Positions 2,475 through 27,681 of a stretch of 64,000 bases of DNA are shown in pieces. The DNA is taken from assembly GCA_009694185.1 (NCBI GenBank), contig SHVR01000008.1, positions 2,350-66,349 of the forward strand, read 5' to 3'. Below the pieces are notes generated by a model that was not told where the DNA came from, did not search any database, and saw nothing but the letters and a program-made list of their open reading frames with translations. The translations under genes were made by a program, and so were the position numbers. How positions within the stretch are numbered: position 1 is the first letter of the stretch; every line of letters starts with the position of its first letter. The DNA is from Alphaproteobacteria bacterium. Its GTDB lineage: Bacteria > Pseudomonadota > Alphaproteobacteria > SHVR01.

Positions 2475-3704
2475 TCAGCTCTTCTTGGCGAACGGGCAGT
2501 TGCCCTGTTCGATCGGCCGGAACGCCTCGGCCGCCGGAATCGTGCGCACCAGCTTGTAATAGTCCCAGGGGCCCTTGGACTCGGCGGGCTTCTTCACCTG
2601 GAAGAGGTACATGTCGCGGATCGTCCGCCCGTCCTCGCGCACCCGGCCGCCCTTGGTGAAGAAGTCGTCGACCGGCAGCTCTTTCATCTTGGCGGCGACC
2701 GCCTTGGCCTCGTCGGTGCCGGCCGCCTGGATCGCCTTCAGATAGTGGGTCACCGCGCCGTAGACGCCGGCATGGATCATGTTTGGGTGCTGCTTGTGGC
2801 GCTGGGTGAAGCGCTTGGTCCAGGCGCGGGTCTCATCGGTCAGATCCCAGTAGAATGCCTCGGTCAGCATCAGGCCCTGGGCCACATCGAGGCCGAGGGC
2901 ATGCACGTCGTTCAGGAACACCAGGAGGCCGGCCAAATTCTGGCCGCCCTTGACGATGCCGAACTCGGCCGCCTGCTTGATCGAGTTGGTGGTGTCGGTG
3001 CCGGCATTGGCGAGGCCGATGATCTTCGCCTTGGACGCCTGGGCTTGCAGCAGGAAGGACGAGAAGTCGGACGAGTTCAGCGGATGGCGCACGACGCCCA
3101 GCACCTTGCCGCCATTGGCCTTCACCACGTCGGTGGTATCCTTCTCGAGCGCATGGCCGAAAGCGTAGTCCGCCGTCAGGAAGAACCAGCTATCGCCGCC
3201 GGCCAGCACCGTCGCCTTGCCGGTACCATTCGCCAAAGCCCAAGTGTCGTAGGTCCAGTGGATGCCGGTCGGCGAGCATTTGTCGCTCGTCAAGGCGGAG
3301 GAGGCGGCGCCAGAGATCAGCAGCATGCGGTTCTTGTTCTTGGTGATCTCCTGGACCGCGAGTGCCACGGACGAGGTCGGCACATCGGCGATCGCATCCA
3401 CCTTTTCCACGTCGATCCAGCGGTTGGCGACCGTCGAGCCCACATCGGGCTTGTTCTGATGGTCGGCGAAGACGATTTCGATCGGCTTGCCGAGCACCTT
3501 GCCGCCGAAATCCTCGGCCGCCAGCCTGGCGGCGATGACCGAGCCCTGGCCGGTTAAATCGGCGTAGAGGCTCGCCTGGTCGTTGAGCACGCCGATTTTC
3601 ACCACGTCGTCCGATATCTGGGCCTGGGCATTACCCAGCGTCGCGCCCAGGGCCACAAGGCTTGCCAGGGTCAGTTTGAGCCACATTGCTAAGGTCCTCC
3701 TCAT
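2475..3704 (-). CDS. ABC transporter substrate-binding protein (LivK/amide-urea type periplasmic binding protein)
   Basis: 409 aa with an N-terminal signal peptide (LASLVALGATLGNAQA). Lies between the permease and ATPase genes. The start could instead be the second Met at 3686. Confidence 0.85.
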   Translation of the reverse strand: MRRTLAMWLKLTLASLVALGATLGNAQAQISDDVVKIGVLNDQASLYADLTGQGSVIAARLAAEDFGGKVLGKPIEIVFADHQNKPDVGSTVANRWIDVEKVDAIADVPTSSVALAVQEITKNKNRMLLISGAASSALTSDKCSPTGIHWTYDTWALANGTGKATVLAGGDSWFFLTADYAFGHALEKDTTDVVKANGGKVLGVVRHPLNSSDFSSFLLQAQASKAKIIGLANAGTDTTNSIKQAAEFGIVKGGQNLAGLLVFLNDVHALGLDVAQGLMLTEAFYWDLTDETRAWTKRFTQRHKQHPNMIHAGVYGAVTHYLKAIQAAGTDEAKAVAAKMKELPVDDFFTKGGRVREDGRTIRDMYLFQVKKPAESKGPWDYYKLVRTIPAAEAFRPIEQGNCPFAKKS

Positions 3705-21812: not shown

Positions 21813-22991
21813 TCACGCCAGCATCGCCCCCGGCCGCCAGTTGCGGCCGAGCAGCAGGGCGGCCCCGGCGCTCGCCGCCGAGAGGCCCGCCATGACGAGA
21901 AACGCGCCGCTGCCCCAGGCCGCGTACATGTGGCCCGAGAACAGGGTCGTGAGGCCGACAATGACCCCCATGCTGAGCGAGGAATAGAGTGCCTGGGCGC
22001 TGCCGGCGACGGTGGCCGGTATGGCGTTCTGGAGCAGGTAGGTGGCACCCAGATGGGTGGCGCCAAAAGTCAGTGCGTGCAGAAGCTGCAGGGCGGCCAG
22101 CGCCCAATAGGCGTCGGCATAAGCGAGGCCCAGCCAGCGCGCGAGGCCGGCCGCGGCGCCGACGACCAGCATGGCGATGGGGCCGATGCGGCGGGTGAGC
22201 CCGCCGGCGACCGCAAACAGGACGATCTCGCCCACCACGCCCAAGGCCCAGAGCAGGCCAATGGCGTCGTCGCCATGGCCGAGTGCTCGCCAATGCAGGG
22301 TGCCGAAGCCGTGCAGGATGCTGTGGCTTGCCATGTTGAGGGCGGCCGCGAGCACCATCAGGAGAAAGAGCGGCCGCGCGAGCAGCCTGCGGACGGGCCG
22401 GCTCCGGGGCGGGCTGGGCGGCATCTCGGGTGCCGGCAGAAATTGGGTCGCAATCGCGGTGGCGGCAATGCAGCCCGCAATCAGCCAGAGGATCAGGGAT
22501 TCCGGCCGGCCGGCGATCAGCCAGCCGGCGCCGACCGACGCGGCGATGAAGGAAACCGAGCCCCAGAGGCGGAGCCTGCCATAGTCGAGGCCCTGTTGGC
22601 GCATGGTCGCGAGCGACAGGCTCTCGGCGAGCGGCATCACCGGCGCGTAGATGGCGACATAGAGGCTCATCAGGAGCAGCACCGGCCAGAAGCCCTGGGC
22701 GAAGCCGAGCGGCAGGCAAGCGAGGAAGCCGCCGATGGCGAGGCCCTGTACCAGGCGGCGCCGCGCGCCCAGGCGGTCGGCGAGGGCTGCTACCAGCGGG
22801 TTCACGGCCACGCGAACCGCCATCATGGTGGCGAGCACGAAGCCGATTTCGCGGGCATCGAGGCCGCGCGAGGCGAGCCATACCGGCGTGAACGGAACCG
22901 AGATGCCGACCGCCGAAAACAACGCGGCATAGTAGCAGGCGAGCCTGCGCGCTGCGCGATCCGTGCTCATCTCGGCCGATCGGCGTGGCAA
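21813..22991 (-). CDS. MFS transporter
   Basis: 392 aa with about 12 predicted hydrophobic segments. The general composition fits the major facilitator superfamily. Confidence 0.8.
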   Translation of the reverse strand: MPRRSAEMSTDRAARRLACYYAALFSAVGISVPFTPVWLASRGLDAREIGFVLATMMAVRVAVNPLVAALADRLGARRRLVQGLAIGGFLACLPLGFAQGFWPVLLLMSLYVAIYAPVMPLAESLSLATMRQQGLDYGRLRLWGSVSFIAASVGAGWLIAGRPESLILWLIAGCIAATAIATQFLPAPEMPPSPPRSRPVRRLLARPLFLLMVLAAALNMASHSILHGFGTLHWRALGHGDDAIGLLWALGVVGEIVLFAVAGGLTRRIGPIAMLVVGAAAGLARWLGLAYADAYWALAALQLLHALTFGATHLGATYLLQNAIPATVAGSAQALYSSLSMGVIVGLTTLFSGHMYAAWGSGAFLVMAGLSAASAGAALLLGRNWRPGAMLA

Positions 22992-23047
22992 TTGCCGCCC
23001 GCATCGTGTAAGAGCGCCCGGTCGCGAGTGTGGGAGGGTGGTCGGCG

Positions 23048-23569
23048 ATGACGGAGTGGCAAGACGATATTCATCGGATTTTGCGCGACGCCGACATTCG
23101 CCAGGTCTGCTATGTGCCGGATGCCGGGCACAGCCGGCTGATCGAGTTGTGCGAAGCCGATCCGGCCATATCGTCGACTTTACTCAGCACCGAGGAGGAA
23201 GGCGTGGCGCACCTCGCCGGCGCCTGGCTCGGGGGCCAGAAGGGCGCCTTGCTCATGCAGTCGAGCGGGGTCGGCAATTGCATCAACATGCTCTCACTCA
23301 CCAAGACCTGCGCCTTTCCCCTGCTGATGCTGATCACCATGCGTGGCGAATGGGGCGAGTTCAACCCTTGGCAGGTGCCCATGGGATCGACCACCCAGCA
23401 GCATCTGGAACTCGCGGGTTGCAAAGTCTATCGCTGCGATGCGCCGGGGGAGGTTGCGGAGACGATCGGCACCGGTGCCCGTTTCTGCTGGTATACCAGC
23501 TCGGCGGTGGCGGTGCTGCTCGGCCAGCGCCTGATCGGCGCCAAGATCTTCGTGGAGGACGGCCGATGA
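23048..23569 (+). CDS. thiamine-diphosphate enzyme, N-terminal (pyrimidine-binding) subunit, sulfopyruvate/phosphonopyruvate decarboxylase alpha-like
   Basis: VCYVPDAGHSRLIE...STEEEGVAHLAGAWLGGQKGALLMQSSGVGNCINML. GGGAGGG lies upstream of the ATG at 23048. Confidence 0.7.
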   Translation: MTEWQDDIHRILRDADIRQVCYVPDAGHSRLIELCEADPAISSTLLSTEEEGVAHLAGAWLGGQKGALLMQSSGVGNCINMLSLTKTCAFPLLMLITMRGEWGEFNPWQVPMGSTTQQHLELAGCKVYRCDAPGEVAETIGTGARFCWYTSSAVAVLLGQRLIGAKIFVEDGR

Positions 23570-24156
23570 GCGCGGACCATAGCCTGAACCGGCGCGCCGT
23601 GGTGAAGAGCCTGCTCTCGAACCGGGGCGACATGCTGGTGGTGGCCGGTCTCGGCCAGTGCACCTATGACTGCTTTGCGGCCGGCGACGATCCGCGCACC
23701 TTCTATCTCTGGGGCGCCATGGGCGGCGCGGTGCCGGTCGGGCTCGGCATGGCGATCGCCCAGCCGGAGCGGCGGGTGATGGTGATCACCGGCGACGGCG
23801 AACTGCTGATGGGCCTGGGCAGCCTGGCCACGGTCGCGGCCAAGGCGCCGAACAACATGGCGGTCGTGGTGTTGGACAATGAGCGCTATGGCGAGACCGG
23901 CCAGCAACCGACCCACACCGCCATGGGCACCGACCTTGCCGGGGTGGCCCGCGCGGCCGGTTTCAAGTCGGCGCTCGTCATCGCGGACGAATCCGGCCTG
24001 CCGGCGGCGATCATGGCCGCCCGCGAGGCGCCGGGGCCGGTCCTCGTGGTCGTCAAGGTGAGTGCCGCGCCGGAGCCGAGGGCGTTGCCGCCGACCGATG
24101 GCGCCTATCTCAAGCACCGCTTCCGCGAGGCGGTGGTCGGCAAGGCGACCGTGTAG
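23566..24156 (+). CDS. thiamine-diphosphate enzyme, C-terminal (diphosphate-binding) subunit, decarboxylase beta-like
   Basis: GAMGGAVPVGLGMA...ITGDGELLMGLGSLATV...VVVLDNERYGETG is a TPP-binding motif. The ATG overlaps the upstream stop as ATGA. Confidence 0.7.
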   Translation: MSADHSLNRRAVVKSLLSNRGDMLVVAGLGQCTYDCFAAGDDPRTFYLWGAMGGAVPVGLGMAIAQPERRVMVITGDGELLMGLGSLATVAAKAPNNMAVVVLDNERYGETGQQPTHTAMGTDLAGVARAAGFKSALVIADESGLPAAIMAAREAPGPVLVVVKVSAAPEPRALPPTDGAYLKHRFREAVVGKATV

Positions 24157-24194
24157 TCAGGGCGGGCGCCCCGACCTGTTCTTCGACCAAGCTC

Positions 24195-24509
24195 TCAGCG
24201 ATCTGGGTGAGCCTCCATATAGGCCCGCAACACGGCGTTGATGCGAGTCTGGTAGCCACGGCCTTGGCCCCGGAAATAGGCCATCACGTCGCGATCGAGG
24301 CGGAGCCCCACCCGCTCCTTCGGCACCGGCACCACCAGGCGGGCAGTCTTCCAGAAATTGGCGTCCGCCATGCTTTGATCGGGGTCGGACTTCACGGCGT
24401 GCCGAATCTCGGTGTCGGTCAGCGACCGCACCCGCCGCCAGTCAGTCAGGCTCTTCCGGTGCCCGAGTTCGGCGCTGGAGATGCGTGTGATAGAGCCTTT
24501 CTTCGGCAC
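24195..24509 (-). CDS. brnA: BrnA/DUF4415-type antitoxin
   Basis: My hand translation gives SLTDWRRVRSLTDTEIRHAVKSDPD...KERVGLRLDRDVMAYFRGQGRGYQTRINAVLRAYMEA. The GTG start is preceded by AAGGAGGG. Confidence 0.75.
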   Translation of the reverse strand: MPKKGSITRISSAELGHRKSLTDWRRVRSLTDTEIRHAVKSDPDQSMADANFWKTARLVVPVPKERVGLRLDRDVMAYFRGQGRGYQTRINAVLRAYMEAHPDR

Positions 24510-24747
24510 GGCTTGCCCTCCTTGCGCTGATGATCCGGCGTGCATCCCGGCGGGGGCTATAGACGACATACAGCATGTCTTCGCCGCACATTCCGATGGC
24601 CCGAATGCGGTGCTCGCCATAGTTCCGTCTACGATCTTCTGTCTCGAACTCCGGGAAACTTGCTTCGAAGATGCGGGCGGCGTCCGCAAAGTCGATGCCA
24701 TGCTTACGGCGGTTGGCGCGGCTCTTCCGGTCATCCCATTCTTACAT
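24442..24747 (-). pseudogene. brnT: BrnT/DUF497-type toxin with a TAA stop at codon 2
   Basis: The reverse-strand frame reads ATG TAA GAA TGG GAT..., giving M-stop-EWDDRKSRANRRKHGIDFADAARIFE...YGEHRIRAIGMCGEDMLYVVYSPRRDARRIISARRA. The next in-frame start is the Met in IGMCGED. Confidence 0.65.
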
Positions 24748-24800
24748 GGCTATTTTGCGCCGAACGCCAGCGCCATCGTCAAGACAATTGTGGCCACACG
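24748..24800 (-). promoter_or_regulatory. candidate brnTA promoter/operator
   Basis: The minus strand reads TGTGGCCACA (10-bp palindrome), ACAATTGT (8-bp palindrome), TTGACG, 17-19 nt, CAAAAT, then AGCC-ATG. Confidence 0.25.
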
Positions 24801-24950
24801 GCCATCAAGGCGGCGCTGGAGGCGCCGGGGCCGGTCCTGGTGGTGGTCAAGGTCGGCGCCGCGCCGGAGCCCATGGCGCCGCCGCCCAAGGACGGCGCCT
24901 ATCTCAAGCACCGCTTCCGCGCGGCGGTGGTGGGCAAGGCGGCCCTATAG
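24801..24950 (+). pseudogene. orphan duplicate of the last 49 codons of the decarboxylase beta-like gene
   Basis: AIKAALEAPGPVLVVVKVGAAPEPMAPPPKDGAYLKHRFRAAVVGKAAL-stop aligns with 24007..24156. About 125 of 150 nt are identical by my hand alignment. Confidence 0.7.
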
Positions 24951-24972
24951 CCGCCCTGCCGCTGGTCTTCCG

Positions 24973-25404
24973 CTACGACGCCGGCCGCTCGCAGGGCACG
25001 GTGTCCATCTTGGCCGGCACCGAGAGTTCCAGGATCTCCACATCGGCGGAGGTCGCGATCTCGTTATGCTTCATGCCGCCCGGGATGAACAGCGACTCGC
25101 CGGCCTTGAGGTGGACCTTCTTGCCGCCCTCGAATTCGAGGTCGGCCCAACCCTTGAGGGCATAGACGAACTGCCCCTCGCAGGCATGATAATGCCAGCC
25201 GGTCGGCTCGGTCATGCCGGTGATGGCGGTCATGGTCTGGGCGCGCAGCCGGCCTTGGCTCGCGTCGGTCACACCCAAGTCCCGGTACTCGAAGAAAGTA
25301 CGCCGGCCCGGCGCCGACTTCGCCGTGGCGGCAGTCGCATGGGCGAGCGTCATCTTGGAAGTCGCGGCCTTGGGCTTTTCCTTCACGCGGGTGCTGGACG
25401 TCAT
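24973..25404 (-). CDS. cupin domain protein
   Basis: GWHYHACEGQFVYALKGWADLEF...GESLFIPGGMKHNE are the two cupin motifs. GGAGA lies upstream of the ATG at 25404. Confidence 0.7.
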   Translation of the reverse strand: MTSSTRVKEKPKAATSKMTLAHATAATAKSAPGRRTFFEYRDLGVTDASQGRLRAQTMTAITGMTEPTGWHYHACEGQFVYALKGWADLEFEGGKKVHLKAGESLFIPGGMKHNEIATSADVEILELSVPAKMDTVPCERPAS

Positions 25405-25551
25405 GTCGTGGTCTCCATGCTGCCTGGGGTGATCGTCGTACAGCATAACGCCAGCCGGCCGAGATCCAAAATGTCCCGATGCGGTTGATCCGGCCCCGCC
25501 CTTCGGACAGGATAGCCCCTGACCTATTCCGTGGCCGGGAGCGGCGAACCC

Positions 25552-26460
25552 ATGGCGACCGAGATTCCCTTCAATCGGAGCTTCGAGATCGAACCCGACC
25601 GGGTCTACGCGCTATCGCCGCTGTTGCGCCGGATCACGGCGAAGAATCCGAGCAACTTCACCTTTCGCGGCACCAATACCTACATCGTCGGGCAGGGCCG
25701 GGTGGCGGTGGTCGATCCGGGCCCCGACCGGCCGGAGCATACCGAGGCGATTTTGGCGGCGCTCGCGGGCGAGACCGTCAGCCACATCCTAGTGACTCAC
25801 ACCCACATGGATCATTCGCCGGGCGTGCCGGCGCTCAAAGCCAGGACCGGCGCGCCGGTCTATGGTTATGGCCCGCACGGCGTCGGCGTGCCGGGTGACT
25901 GGCCATGGCCGGCACCCGAGGGTGGCGACTTGAACTTCCGGCCCGATGTGCGGATTGGCGACGGCGCCCTGGTCCGGGGAGACGGCTGGACGCTCGAGGC
26001 CGTCTTCACGCCCGGCCATATCTCCAACCACCTCTGCTTTCAGCTCCGCGAAGAGAATGTCCTGCTCTCGGGCGACCATGTCATGGGCTGGTCGACCTCG
26101 GTCATCTCGCCGCCGGACGGCAACATGACCGACTATATGGCGAGCCTCGCCAAGCTGCTCGGCCGGGGCGAGCGGCGCTATTGGCCGGGCCATGGCGGGC
26201 CGGTCGAGGATCCGCGGCCGTTCGTCAAGGCCTTCATCGCCCATCGCCACGACCGCGAGCGGCAGATTCTCGACTGCCTCGCCGCTGGTCCCAAGACCAT
26301 CAAGGAGATGGTGCCGATCATGTATGCCGATGTGGCGCCGGCGCTGCATGGCGCGGCCGGCCGCTCGGTGCTGGCCCACCTGATTCACATGCATGGCGGC
26401 GGGCGCGTGGCGGCCGAAGGGGGCCGCGCCGGCCCCGACACGATCTATCGTCTGCCGTGA
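25552..26460 (+). CDS. MBL-fold metallo-hydrolase
   Basis: HILVTHTHMDHSPG metal-binding motif. About 300 aa. Confidence 0.8.
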   Translation: MATEIPFNRSFEIEPDRVYALSPLLRRITAKNPSNFTFRGTNTYIVGQGRVAVVDPGPDRPEHTEAILAALAGETVSHILVTHTHMDHSPGVPALKARTGAPVYGYGPHGVGVPGDWPWPAPEGGDLNFRPDVRIGDGALVRGDGWTLEAVFTPGHISNHLCFQLREENVLLSGDHVMGWSTSVISPPDGNMTDYMASLAKLLGRGERRYWPGHGGPVEDPRPFVKAFIAHRHDRERQILDCLAAGPKTIKEMVPIMYADVAPALHGAAGRSVLAHLIHMHGGGRVAAEGGRAGPDTIYRLP

Positions 26461-26484
26461 TCGCCGGCCACGGACGCGAACGCC

Positions 26485-27681
26485 ATGGCTCGCTTCCGCA
26501 CGCTCGACGATCTTGCCGTTGCCGGCAAACGCGTCCTCGTCCGGGTCGATTTCAACGTCCCCATGCGCGACGGCCGGGTGAGGGAGCCATCCCGCATCGA
26601 GCGCACGCTGCCCACCATTCGCGAGCTTCGCGAGAAGGGGGCGCGGGTGATTCTGCTTTCCCATCTCGGCCGGCCGGACGGCAAATATGATCCCGCCCTG
26701 TCGCAGAAACCGTTTGCGGACCTGCTCGCGACGTTGCTCGGCCGGCCGGTGGCGTTCGCCGCCGATTGCATTGGCCCGCCCGCCGAACGGGTGGTGGCGG
26801 CCTTGCCGGCGGGCGGCGTCGCCCTCCTGGAGAATGTCCGCTTTCACGCGGGCGAGGAGGCGAACGACAGGGGATTCGCTCAAGAGCTTGCCAGGCTCGG
26901 CGATCTCTATGTGAACGATGCCTTCGCGGTCTCCCACCGCGCCCACGCCTCGATGGCGGGGTTGGCGCATCTGTTGCCGGCAGCCGCCGGTCGGCTGATG
27001 CAGGCGGAGCTCGATGCGCTAGACGGCGCCCTCGACAATCCGGCTCGGCCCGTGGGCGCCGTGGTGGGCGGCGCCAAGGTATCGAGCAAGCTTGCCATTC
27101 TGGAGAACCTGGTGGGCCGGGTCGACGCGCTGTTTATCGGTGGCGGCATGGCCAACACGTTTTTGCACGCGCTCGGCAATGACGTCGGCCGGAGCCTCTG
27201 CGAGAAGGGCCTGGCCGAGACGGCGCGGCGCATCGCCGCCGTCGCCCGGGACGCCGGTTGTGCCCTGGTCCTGCCGGCGGATGGGGTGGTCGCGGCGGCG
27301 TTCCGGGCGGGCGAGCCAACGACCGTGGTGCCGGTGACGAAGGTGCCGGCCGAGGCCATGATCCTCGATGTGGGGCCGGCGACCGTCGCCGATATGATCC
27401 GGCGGCTCGATGGCTTGAAGACCCTGGTCTGGAACGGCCCGCTTGGCGCCTTCGAGGTGCCGCCCTTCGATGCCGGCACCAACGCCGTGGCGCGGGCGGC
27501 GGCGGCCCGCACCAGGGCCGGCCAACTGTTGAGCGTCGCGGGTGGCGGCGACACGGTCGCCGCCCTTGCCCATGCCGGGGTGGTCGATGATTTCAGCTAC
27601 GTCTCGACGGCGGGTGGCGCCTTCCTCGAATGGCTCGAGGGACGCGCGCTGCCCGGGGTAGCGGCGCTTTCCACGGAGTGA
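26485..27681 (+). CDS. pgk: phosphoglycerate kinase
   Basis: KRVLVRVDFNVPM, SHLGRP, and FIGGGMANTFL motifs. 398 aa. Confidence 0.95.
   Translation: MARFRTLDDLAVAGKRVLVRVDFNVPMRDGRVREPSRIERTLPTIRELREKGARVILLSHLGRPDGKYDPALSQKPFADLLATLLGRPVAFAADCIGPPAERVVAALPAGGVALLENVRFHAGEEANDRGFAQELARLGDLYVNDAFAVSHRAHASMAGLAHLLPAAAGRLMQAELDALDGALDNPARPVGAVVGGAKVSSKLAILENLVGRVDALFIGGGMANTFLHALGNDVGRSLCEKGLAETARRIAAVARDAGCALVLPADGVVAAAFRAGEPTTVVPVTKVPAEAMILDVGPATVADMIRRLDGLKTLVWNGPLGAFEVPPFDAGTNAVARAAAARTRAGQLLSVAGGGDTVAALAHAGVVDDFSYVSTAGGAFLEWLEGRALPGVAALSTE

Follow-up and report, generated by a model that had tools for sequence, protein, structure and literature searches.

Here we analyse a toxin-antitoxin (TA) cassette and the gene that it abuts in a stretch of 64,000 nucleotides (nt) from an alphaproteobacterial genome (contig SHVR01000008.1 of assembly GCA_009694185.1), which we call the window. 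A brnT-brnA operon lies there at the 3' end of the gene for the beta subunit of a thiamine pyrophosphate (TPP)-dependent decarboxylase, and the end of that gene occurs twice: once in place, as part of the working gene (copy A), and once more on the far side of the operon, next to a convergent cupin-domain gene (copy B). We hold with moderate confidence that this arrangement is a decaying brnTA cassette which inserted with a long target duplication at the end of the beta gene.

In the event that we propose, an ancestor common to the window lineage and to that of a relative represented by a short contig (L033, described below) would have gained, at the 3' end of the decarboxylase beta gene, a bare brnT-brnA operon that ran from promoter to stop and lacked a mobility gene. 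About 157 nt of the target would have been duplicated in this event: its last 150 nt, the stop codon and about 7 nt beyond. Copy A would have stayed with the gene body, leaving the enzyme whole, and copy B would have been stranded between the cassette and the cupin gene. The copies would have begun identical or nearly so and drifted to 84% identity, which equals the divergence between the two species, and the cassette would now be decaying, by a nonsense codon in brnT in the window and by loss of brnT and truncation of brnA in L033. Such an insertion could have survived selection because the duplicate includes the stop codon and so keeps the gene intact. The sequences themselves show the duplication, the extent of the insert, its presence in a relative, the equal distances between the copies and the decay. 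That this was a single event, and the route that it took, we infer from the arrangement: our preferred route is the repair of a break, or a switch of template during replication, in which foreign DNA was copied before rejoining about 157 nt upstream, and which would need no recombinase.

The duplicated gene end and the cassette between its copies

A search of positions 22500-26500 of the window finds a single long direct repeat, 24005-24156 against 24799-24950, which is 152 nt long, 84% identical and ungapped, with a spacing of 794. Comparing the left flank of the cassette with the right flank by BLAST gives E = 2e-39. In codon register (24007-24156 against 24801-24950) the two copies agree at 126 of 150 nt and 40 of 49 residues, and their differences are distributed 4/6/14 over codon positions 1/2/3. 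Across the genome, high-identity matches to the C-terminus of the beta subunit are copies A and B only; other paralogues reach at most 39%. An earlier sequence-only reading of this DNA had proposed that the 150-nt gene end recurs at 24801..24950, had put the identity by hand at about 125 of 150 nt, and had named a dot-plot or BLASTN of the two segments as the check. Its coordinates and peptides prove correct, its count was one short of the computed one, and its view of copy B as a stranded orphan 3' end stands, as copy B belongs to no intact separate gene.

The same arrangement is present in a second assembly: window positions 23257-27009 (3.75 kb, including both copies, the cassette and the TAA codon discussed below) are 100% identical in the Logan assembly of SRR8561391 (L199), and an assembler artefact is effectively excluded because of this agreement. 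An identical BrnA protein occurs on four contigs of a public collection. Among species representatives there are no close kin, all of them being related only at the level of the same class.

The segment between the copies contains only brnA, brnT and 51 nt of promoter, with no other ORF (open reading frame) family. The sequence-only reading had likewise seen nothing there but a reverse-oriented brnT-brnA pair, to which we add a qualification: brnT is broken. Its start reads ATG TAA GAA TGG, the TAA being codon 2 (24742-24744), and no in-frame start occurs before residue 51. We take BrnT/BrnA to be the type II TA system of Brucella abortus, with Pfam families PF04365 and PF14384; the Brucella abortus pair was reportedly described by Heaton et al. 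in 2012. Adjacent BrnT_toxin and BrnA_antitoxin domains with the toxin first, the BrnTA type II arrangement, are found in the window, and an intact toxin reading frame is not. The two genes overlap by 68 nt (24442-24509), with the toxin gene first, and a spacer of 38 nt separates copy A from brnA. At the other end, the outer palindrome of the promoter stretch, TGTGGCCACA, occupies 24789-24798 and copy B begins directly after it. As a separate observation, the part of the brnT frame that lies inside brnA (24442-24509) extends about 20 residues past the Pfam domain, and the overlap is conserved in a related cassette (L034, below).

No integrase is encoded on the 93-kb contig, matches to PF00589 sitting on other contigs only, and no transposase ORF between the repeats and no inverted repeat pair at the ends of the insert were found. 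We reject a transposon or insertion sequence on these grounds, namely no transposase, no terminal inverted repeats, and a duplication of 152 nt. An integron gene cassette is rejected as well: the flanking repeat belongs to the coding part of the beta gene and is not attC-like (as judged without a dedicated attC model, none having been run), and the contig carries no integrase.

A relative with the same insertion and the limits of the mobile unit

Close relatives of the locus (L033 and L034) come from a large protein collection only. Outside this clade the nearest BrnTA relatives are less than 65% identical, and scans for BrnA in metagenome and genome contigs gave no cassette closer than about 60%.

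The first relative, L033, is a 4.4-kb contig whose beta subunit is 86% identical in amino acids (aa) to that of the window and whose genes follow one another as they do there (ybaK-like gene, DUF4864, MFS, alpha, beta, cupin), at 80-84% nt identity. On the 3' side of its beta gene L033 keeps 63 N-terminal codons of this brnA, oriented as in the window and at 85-87% nt identity. This remnant is followed by GTCGGCAAGGCGGCCTTTTAG, which is a second copy of the gene's last 21 nt, and then by a 22-nt spacer and the cupin gene; the second gene end of L033 reads GGCAAGGCGGCC..TAG, with 22 nt between it and the cupin stop. L033 has lost brnT, the promoter and the greater part of copy B, and its brnA is cut short. 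L033 therefore has this insertion too, at a later stage of decay, and because it is shared in this way the insertion event is old. L033 also bears on how far the duplication extended: because it keeps CCGCCTC after the first stop as after the second, the duplicate must have run about 7 nt beyond the stop codon.

A further detail of L033 concerns the same position. Right after its beta stop stand 14 nt, CCGACCGCCTCAAC (3722-3735 of L033), which are missing at window 24157 and which hold the trace of the duplicated downstream bases.

The second relative tells us what was inserted. L034, a 994-nt contig, carries an intact brnT-brnA pair that is 87% identical to window 24211-24798 and lies between unrelated flanks of lower GC. 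Homology between L034 and the window has one limit exactly at the palindrome TGTGGCCACA and the other five codons ahead of the brnA stop, and in the promoter stretch 24748-24798 there are 9 differences in 51 nt. Within its 994 nt, L034 has no decarboxylase-like flank and no flanking repeat. The apparent mobile unit, as delimited by this homology, runs from the promoter to near the end of brnA (24211-24798), and the gene end is evidently not part of it because an 87%-identical cassette exists in L034 without a decarboxylase piece. That the brnTA pair is the insert, as the sequence-only reading held, is upheld by this closely similar DNA in an unrelated context. Positions 24157-24210 lie outside the L034 homology and include the last five brnA codons. 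The L034 flanks are absent from the window's genome, which therefore offers no empty site for the L034 insertion.

The comparison with L034 also dates the damage to the toxin gene. Where the window has TAA, brnT of L034 has TAC (Tyr), and because the brnT differences between window and L034 fall 7/9/23 over codon positions, the nonsense mutation is recent.

One further candidate gene was considered here and rejected. A 136-aa ORF (24540-24950) contains copy B; as a functional gene it fails, since it lies on the strand opposite brnT in GC-rich DNA, no family matches copy B by itself, and L033 has lost it. A frame antisense to the brnT start is open in both contexts (window 24540-24950; L034 1-228, minus strand) and continues in phase into the flank, which is copy B in the window and an unknown ORF in L034. 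This shared open frame is probably due to chance in GC-rich DNA.

The coordinates of all features are collected in Table 1. For annotation, the beta-subunit gene is to be called intact, 24799-24950 a gene fragment and not a gene, and brnT a pseudogene beside an intact antitoxin gene.

Table 1. Features of the decarboxylase-brnTA-cupin region, in window positions.
Feature	Position	Strand	Basis
TPP-dependent decarboxylase, alpha (N-terminal TPP-binding) subunit	23030..23569	+	Pfam TPP_enzyme_N
TPP-dependent decarboxylase, beta subunit, 196 aa, intact	23566..24156	+	Pfam TPP_enzyme_C, 81 bits
Repeat copy A: last 49 codons and stop of the working beta gene	24005..24156	+	repeat search, alignment
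Inserted segment, 642 nt, 62.5% GC (71% in the beta gene)	24157..24798	.	
brnA antitoxin gene, intact, 104 aa, GTG start, AAGGAGG 7 nt upstream	24195..24509	-	Pfam BrnA_antitoxin, 63.7 bits (cut-off 26.1)
brnT toxin gene, pseudogene	24442..24747	-	Pfam BrnT_toxin, 80.3 bits (cut-off 34.5)
Predicted brnTA promoter/operator stretch: TTGACG, CAAAAT, palindromes ACAATTGT and TGTGGCCACA	24748..24798	-	
Repeat copy B: orphan beta-gene 3' end, 49 codons and stop, frame open, without upstream gene body	24799..24950	+	
Native 22-nt spacer from the original gene end to the convergent cupin gene	24951..24972	.	L033 spacer of the same length
Cupin-domain gene, convergent downstream neighbour	24973..25404	-	Pfam Cupin_2; syntenic in L033

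As for the enzyme itself, full-length homologues of the beta subunit measure 192-199 aa. The alpha subunit scores 113 bits against the NCBIfam model of the sulfopyruvate decarboxylase alpha subunit, which is under the cut-off, and the beta subunit scores 146.7 bits against TIGR03846, whose cut-off is 221.5. By these profile scores the split decarboxylase resembles sulfopyruvate and phosphonopyruvate decarboxylases, yet it falls under both curated cut-offs. In a more distant relative from the protein collection (L035, 75% aa identity) there is a single beta-gene end and a different downstream gene. In the window the cupin gene stands between the beta gene and a gene of the metallo-beta-lactamase fold; in L035 it is absent and these two genes abut. 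Possibly the cupin gene, too, was inserted at this junction, at an earlier date.

Age of the duplication and competing accounts

How different were the two copies when the insertion occurred? Over the 150 nt, copies A and B differ at 24 positions (84.0% identity), copy A and L033 at 24 (84.0%), and copy B and L033 at 22 (85.3%), with branch lengths of 13, 11 and 11. Sites polarised with six outgroups unite A with B three times, B with L033 twice and A with L033 once, which amounts to a trichotomy. Between housekeeping genes of the window and those of L033 the differences amount to 14.3/9.8/32.4% at codon positions 1/2/3. Because A, B and L033 end equidistant, at the ordinary divergence of orthologues, age alone explains the 16% by which the two copies differ. 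On the assumption that copy B changed no more slowly than the working copies, a starting difference between A and B of 5% has P = 0.027, one of 10% has P = 0.0004 and one of 16% has P ~0. Judged from these comparisons, the copies would have been identical or nearly so at insertion. It is unlikely that they began 5% or more apart; one copy may have come from the allele of a very close relative that differed by less than about 5%.

Several points weigh against the event that we propose. The ten changes that are copy B's own fall 1/3/6 by codon position, there is no indel, and the GC content at third codon positions is 96%. Four changes at positions 1 and 2 compare with 10-16 expected if the copy were neutral (P 0.03 to 0.0004), while a direct test for position bias in copy B is not significant (P = 0.08). 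For a relic that dates from the species split, copy B looks too well preserved. Possible causes of this upkeep are small numbers, GC-biased fixation, recombination with cassette-free alleles, or later stranding. Moreover, A and B have three derived states in common, a hint of gene conversion or of duplication at a later time. Since L033 lacks the left edge of copy B, a single shared event rests on parsimony. No microhomology is visible at either junction of the insert. Finally, searches with beta and cupin homologues found no cassette-free close relative that would display the empty site; by way of the cupin homologues, no cassette-free beta-cupin junction turned up, none exceeding 78% and none being adjacent to a beta gene.

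Part of this evidence would fit the main rival account, in which the cassette arrived with homologous DNA from a very close relative, either on a small circle bearing the last ~150 nt and the cassette, integrated by a single crossover (Campbell type), or on a linear fragment with homology at one side and an illegitimate join at the other (homology-facilitated illegitimate recombination). Both versions predict direct repeats of the homologous stretch around the cassette, with the copies at strain-level divergence. The architecture is exactly what a single crossover would leave, the edge of the repeat coincides cleanly with that of the cassette, the data permit the copies to have started less than about 5% apart, and the gene-like substitutions of copy B suit a resident end that was stranded after the species split. 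We nevertheless consider this course unlikely. The donor would already need the cassette beside the same gene end, which merely moves the question, and two-sided recombination, leaving no duplication, would then be far likelier. Nor does it account for the L034 cassette without a decarboxylase piece, or for the same signature at unrelated targets in two other loci (L107 and L164, below).

The sequence-only reading had gone further: it judged the copies too diverged to stem from a recent target duplication and thought it likelier that recombination with an allele of another genome brought in the cassette. With a clearly diverged allele, copy A would be foreign and copy B resident. The observation behind it, a difference of 16%, is sound, but 16% is also the orthologue divergence to L033, which shares the insertion. 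The copies and L033 end equidistant and age suffices, so that the conclusion is not supported. Under the assumption on rates given above, a foreign allele would have to overcome P = 0.0004 if it began at 10% and P ~0 if it began at 16%. Copy A does carry replacements that are rare in the family (M25R and K30T), but so does copy B (R6L and L27P, at 89%-conserved residues), and tests of codon position, of conservation and of polarised sites did not identify the native copy, each copy having two rare replacements. The insert's GC content is below that of the flanks, as foreign DNA might have it; comparison with L033 reveals no step in divergence along the beta gene. We rate a diverged allele very unlikely, though the gene-like substitution pattern of copy B keeps a weaker form of the idea alive.

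The layout could also be the remnant of a larger site-specific integrative element of the e14/icd type, which would have supplied a substitute 3' end and then lost its integrase and cargo, the stabilising TA pair being left behind. It is indeed the layout of icd, e14 and icdC in E. coli K-12 (PMC13626634). The 93-kb contig holds no integrase, however, only brnTA lies between the repeats, and the related L034 cassette has no gene-end piece. The copies were near-identical at the start, whereas a substitute end borne by an element would normally differ, and the repeat length varies from 72 to 347 nt between loci, all of which makes such a remnant highly improbable. An assembly artefact or chance similarity, which the origin of the genome in a 77%-complete metagenome bin might invite, has next to no chance of being right in view of the repeat's E = 2e-39, the identical 3.75-kb stretch from a second assembler and the two gene ends in the independent sample L033.

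Other brnTA loci and comparison with known systems

For 160 distant brnTA loci (L037-L196) we set left flank against right flank under a strict rule for bracketing, both repeat copies lying within 250 nt of the cassette and measuring at least 40 nt. Of 101 testable loci, 12 have the cassette bracketed by direct repeats of 44-339 nt; among shifted control intervals taken from these loci the figure is 2 of 322. The excess has Fisher P = 1.2e-6, and the loci are not all independent. For survey loci on metagenome contigs the copy number of the repeat is not known. The bracketed set is mixed, comprising unique duplications and dispersed hairpin-rich repeats. In L107 (2-358 and 974-1317) a 347-nt, ~90% duplication of the upstream gene's 3' end, stop included, brackets an unrelated brnTA, which makes it a second clear case of gene-end duplication around such a cassette. 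The L164 repeat (2513-2608, 3249-3340) occurs only twice in its 6.1-Mb alphaproteobacterial genome (G041), where at least five further brnA copies, decayed or frameshifted, lie on other contigs and none is bracketed by repeats. Among 30 relatives no clear empty site for L164 could be recognised, as this brnA is multi-copy and decayed in the genome. Dispersed families are represented by the repeats of L185 (2546-2667), with 46 matches in its own genome, and L178 (312-405), with 11; these partly form tandem arrays beside the cassette. Several loci of the Nitrospira type have hairpin-rich intergenic repeats. Rfam searches of the bracketing repeats of other loci gave nothing except true ribosomal RNA (rRNA) in L188.

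How does the window locus compare with systems already known? It is like the BrnT/BrnA system of Brucella abortus in that both Pfam domains score well above their cut-offs and the two overlapping genes form one operon headed by the toxin gene, and unlike it in that the toxin gene is broken at codon 2. Another point of reference is homology-facilitated illegitimate recombination in natural transformation, which is said to go back to work by de Vries and Wackernagel in 2002. The likeness is that foreign DNA enters beside a homologous anchor with no recombinase of its own; the difference is that this process usually deletes recipient DNA and joins at microhomologies, of which none is visible here.

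The e14 prophage, which in the icd gene of E. coli K-12 leaves the fragment icdC (Hill et al., 1989, as cited in PMC13626634), offers a parallel in layout as far as that account describes it: a working gene end, an insert, and an orphan C-terminal copy beyond, such that recombination between the copies would restore a chimeric intact gene. In the same account e14 is a 15-kb element which has its own integrase and supplies the substitute end, unlike the 642 nt here, with no recombinase and with a related cassette that lacks the gene end. A partial duplication of an rRNA gene, with 270-nt direct duplicates and foreign DNA between them, has also been reported, and long target duplication has been discussed for such duplicated rRNA gene segments too (Lim, Furuta and Kobayashi, 2012, PMC3457768). 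Unlike our case, that duplication concerns an rRNA gene and encloses an insert of 21 nt that holds no genes.

The closest comparison is with restriction-modification genes, for all types of which the Kobayashi group has described 'insertion with long target duplication' (Nobusato et al., 2000, Gene 259:99; Furuta et al., 2010, PMC2853133). In those cases the repeats measure 46 to ~420 bp, and some of them extend over a neighbouring gene's 3' end (PMC2853133). As there, the window has a small addiction-type unit with no mobility gene between long direct repeats of host sequence (152 bp here). Set beside the four criteria of Furuta et al. (2010), it agrees with three: the insert consists of an addiction module only, it is under 20 kb with a repeat above 30 bp, and the repeat is host target sequence, the conserved 3' end of the beta gene, and not dispersed. 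The fourth concerns a related genome with an empty site, where one single-copy sequence should align with both repeats; no close relative free of the cassette was found, and the single gene end of L035 has a different gene behind it. The repeats are 84% identical here, reflecting an old event, versus mostly more than 90% in the restriction-modification cases, and there is no empty site for comparison here. The cargo also differs, being a type II TA pair whose toxin is an RNase and does not cut DNA, so that DNA breakage by a restriction enzyme, the cause suggested by those authors, cannot apply to brnTA.

The movement of chromosomal TA pairs between genomes is known; the entry of bare cassettes without a mobility gene is poorly documented, and in the literature searched we found no direct report of TA cassettes with long target duplication. 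The window locus, L107 and L164 together show the signature described by the Kobayashi group, a long and variable target duplication of host sequence, and its recurrence among brnTA loci is the part that merits a wider survey. We suggest, as a tentative and still doubtful generalisation, that small TA cassettes, like restriction-modification units, commonly enter by a recombinase-free process that duplicates tens to hundreds of target bases. If this is true, insertions into the ends of genes would heal themselves, and through the flanking repeats the cassette could later be excised precisely or amplified. If it is general, it would also provide a recognisable scar for dating and tracing TA acquisitions, and the mechanism would lie in the repair or replication machinery of the host and not in the cargo. 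With an RNase as the toxin, the process would be independent of any DNA cutting by the cargo, contrary to what has been suggested for the restriction-modification systems.

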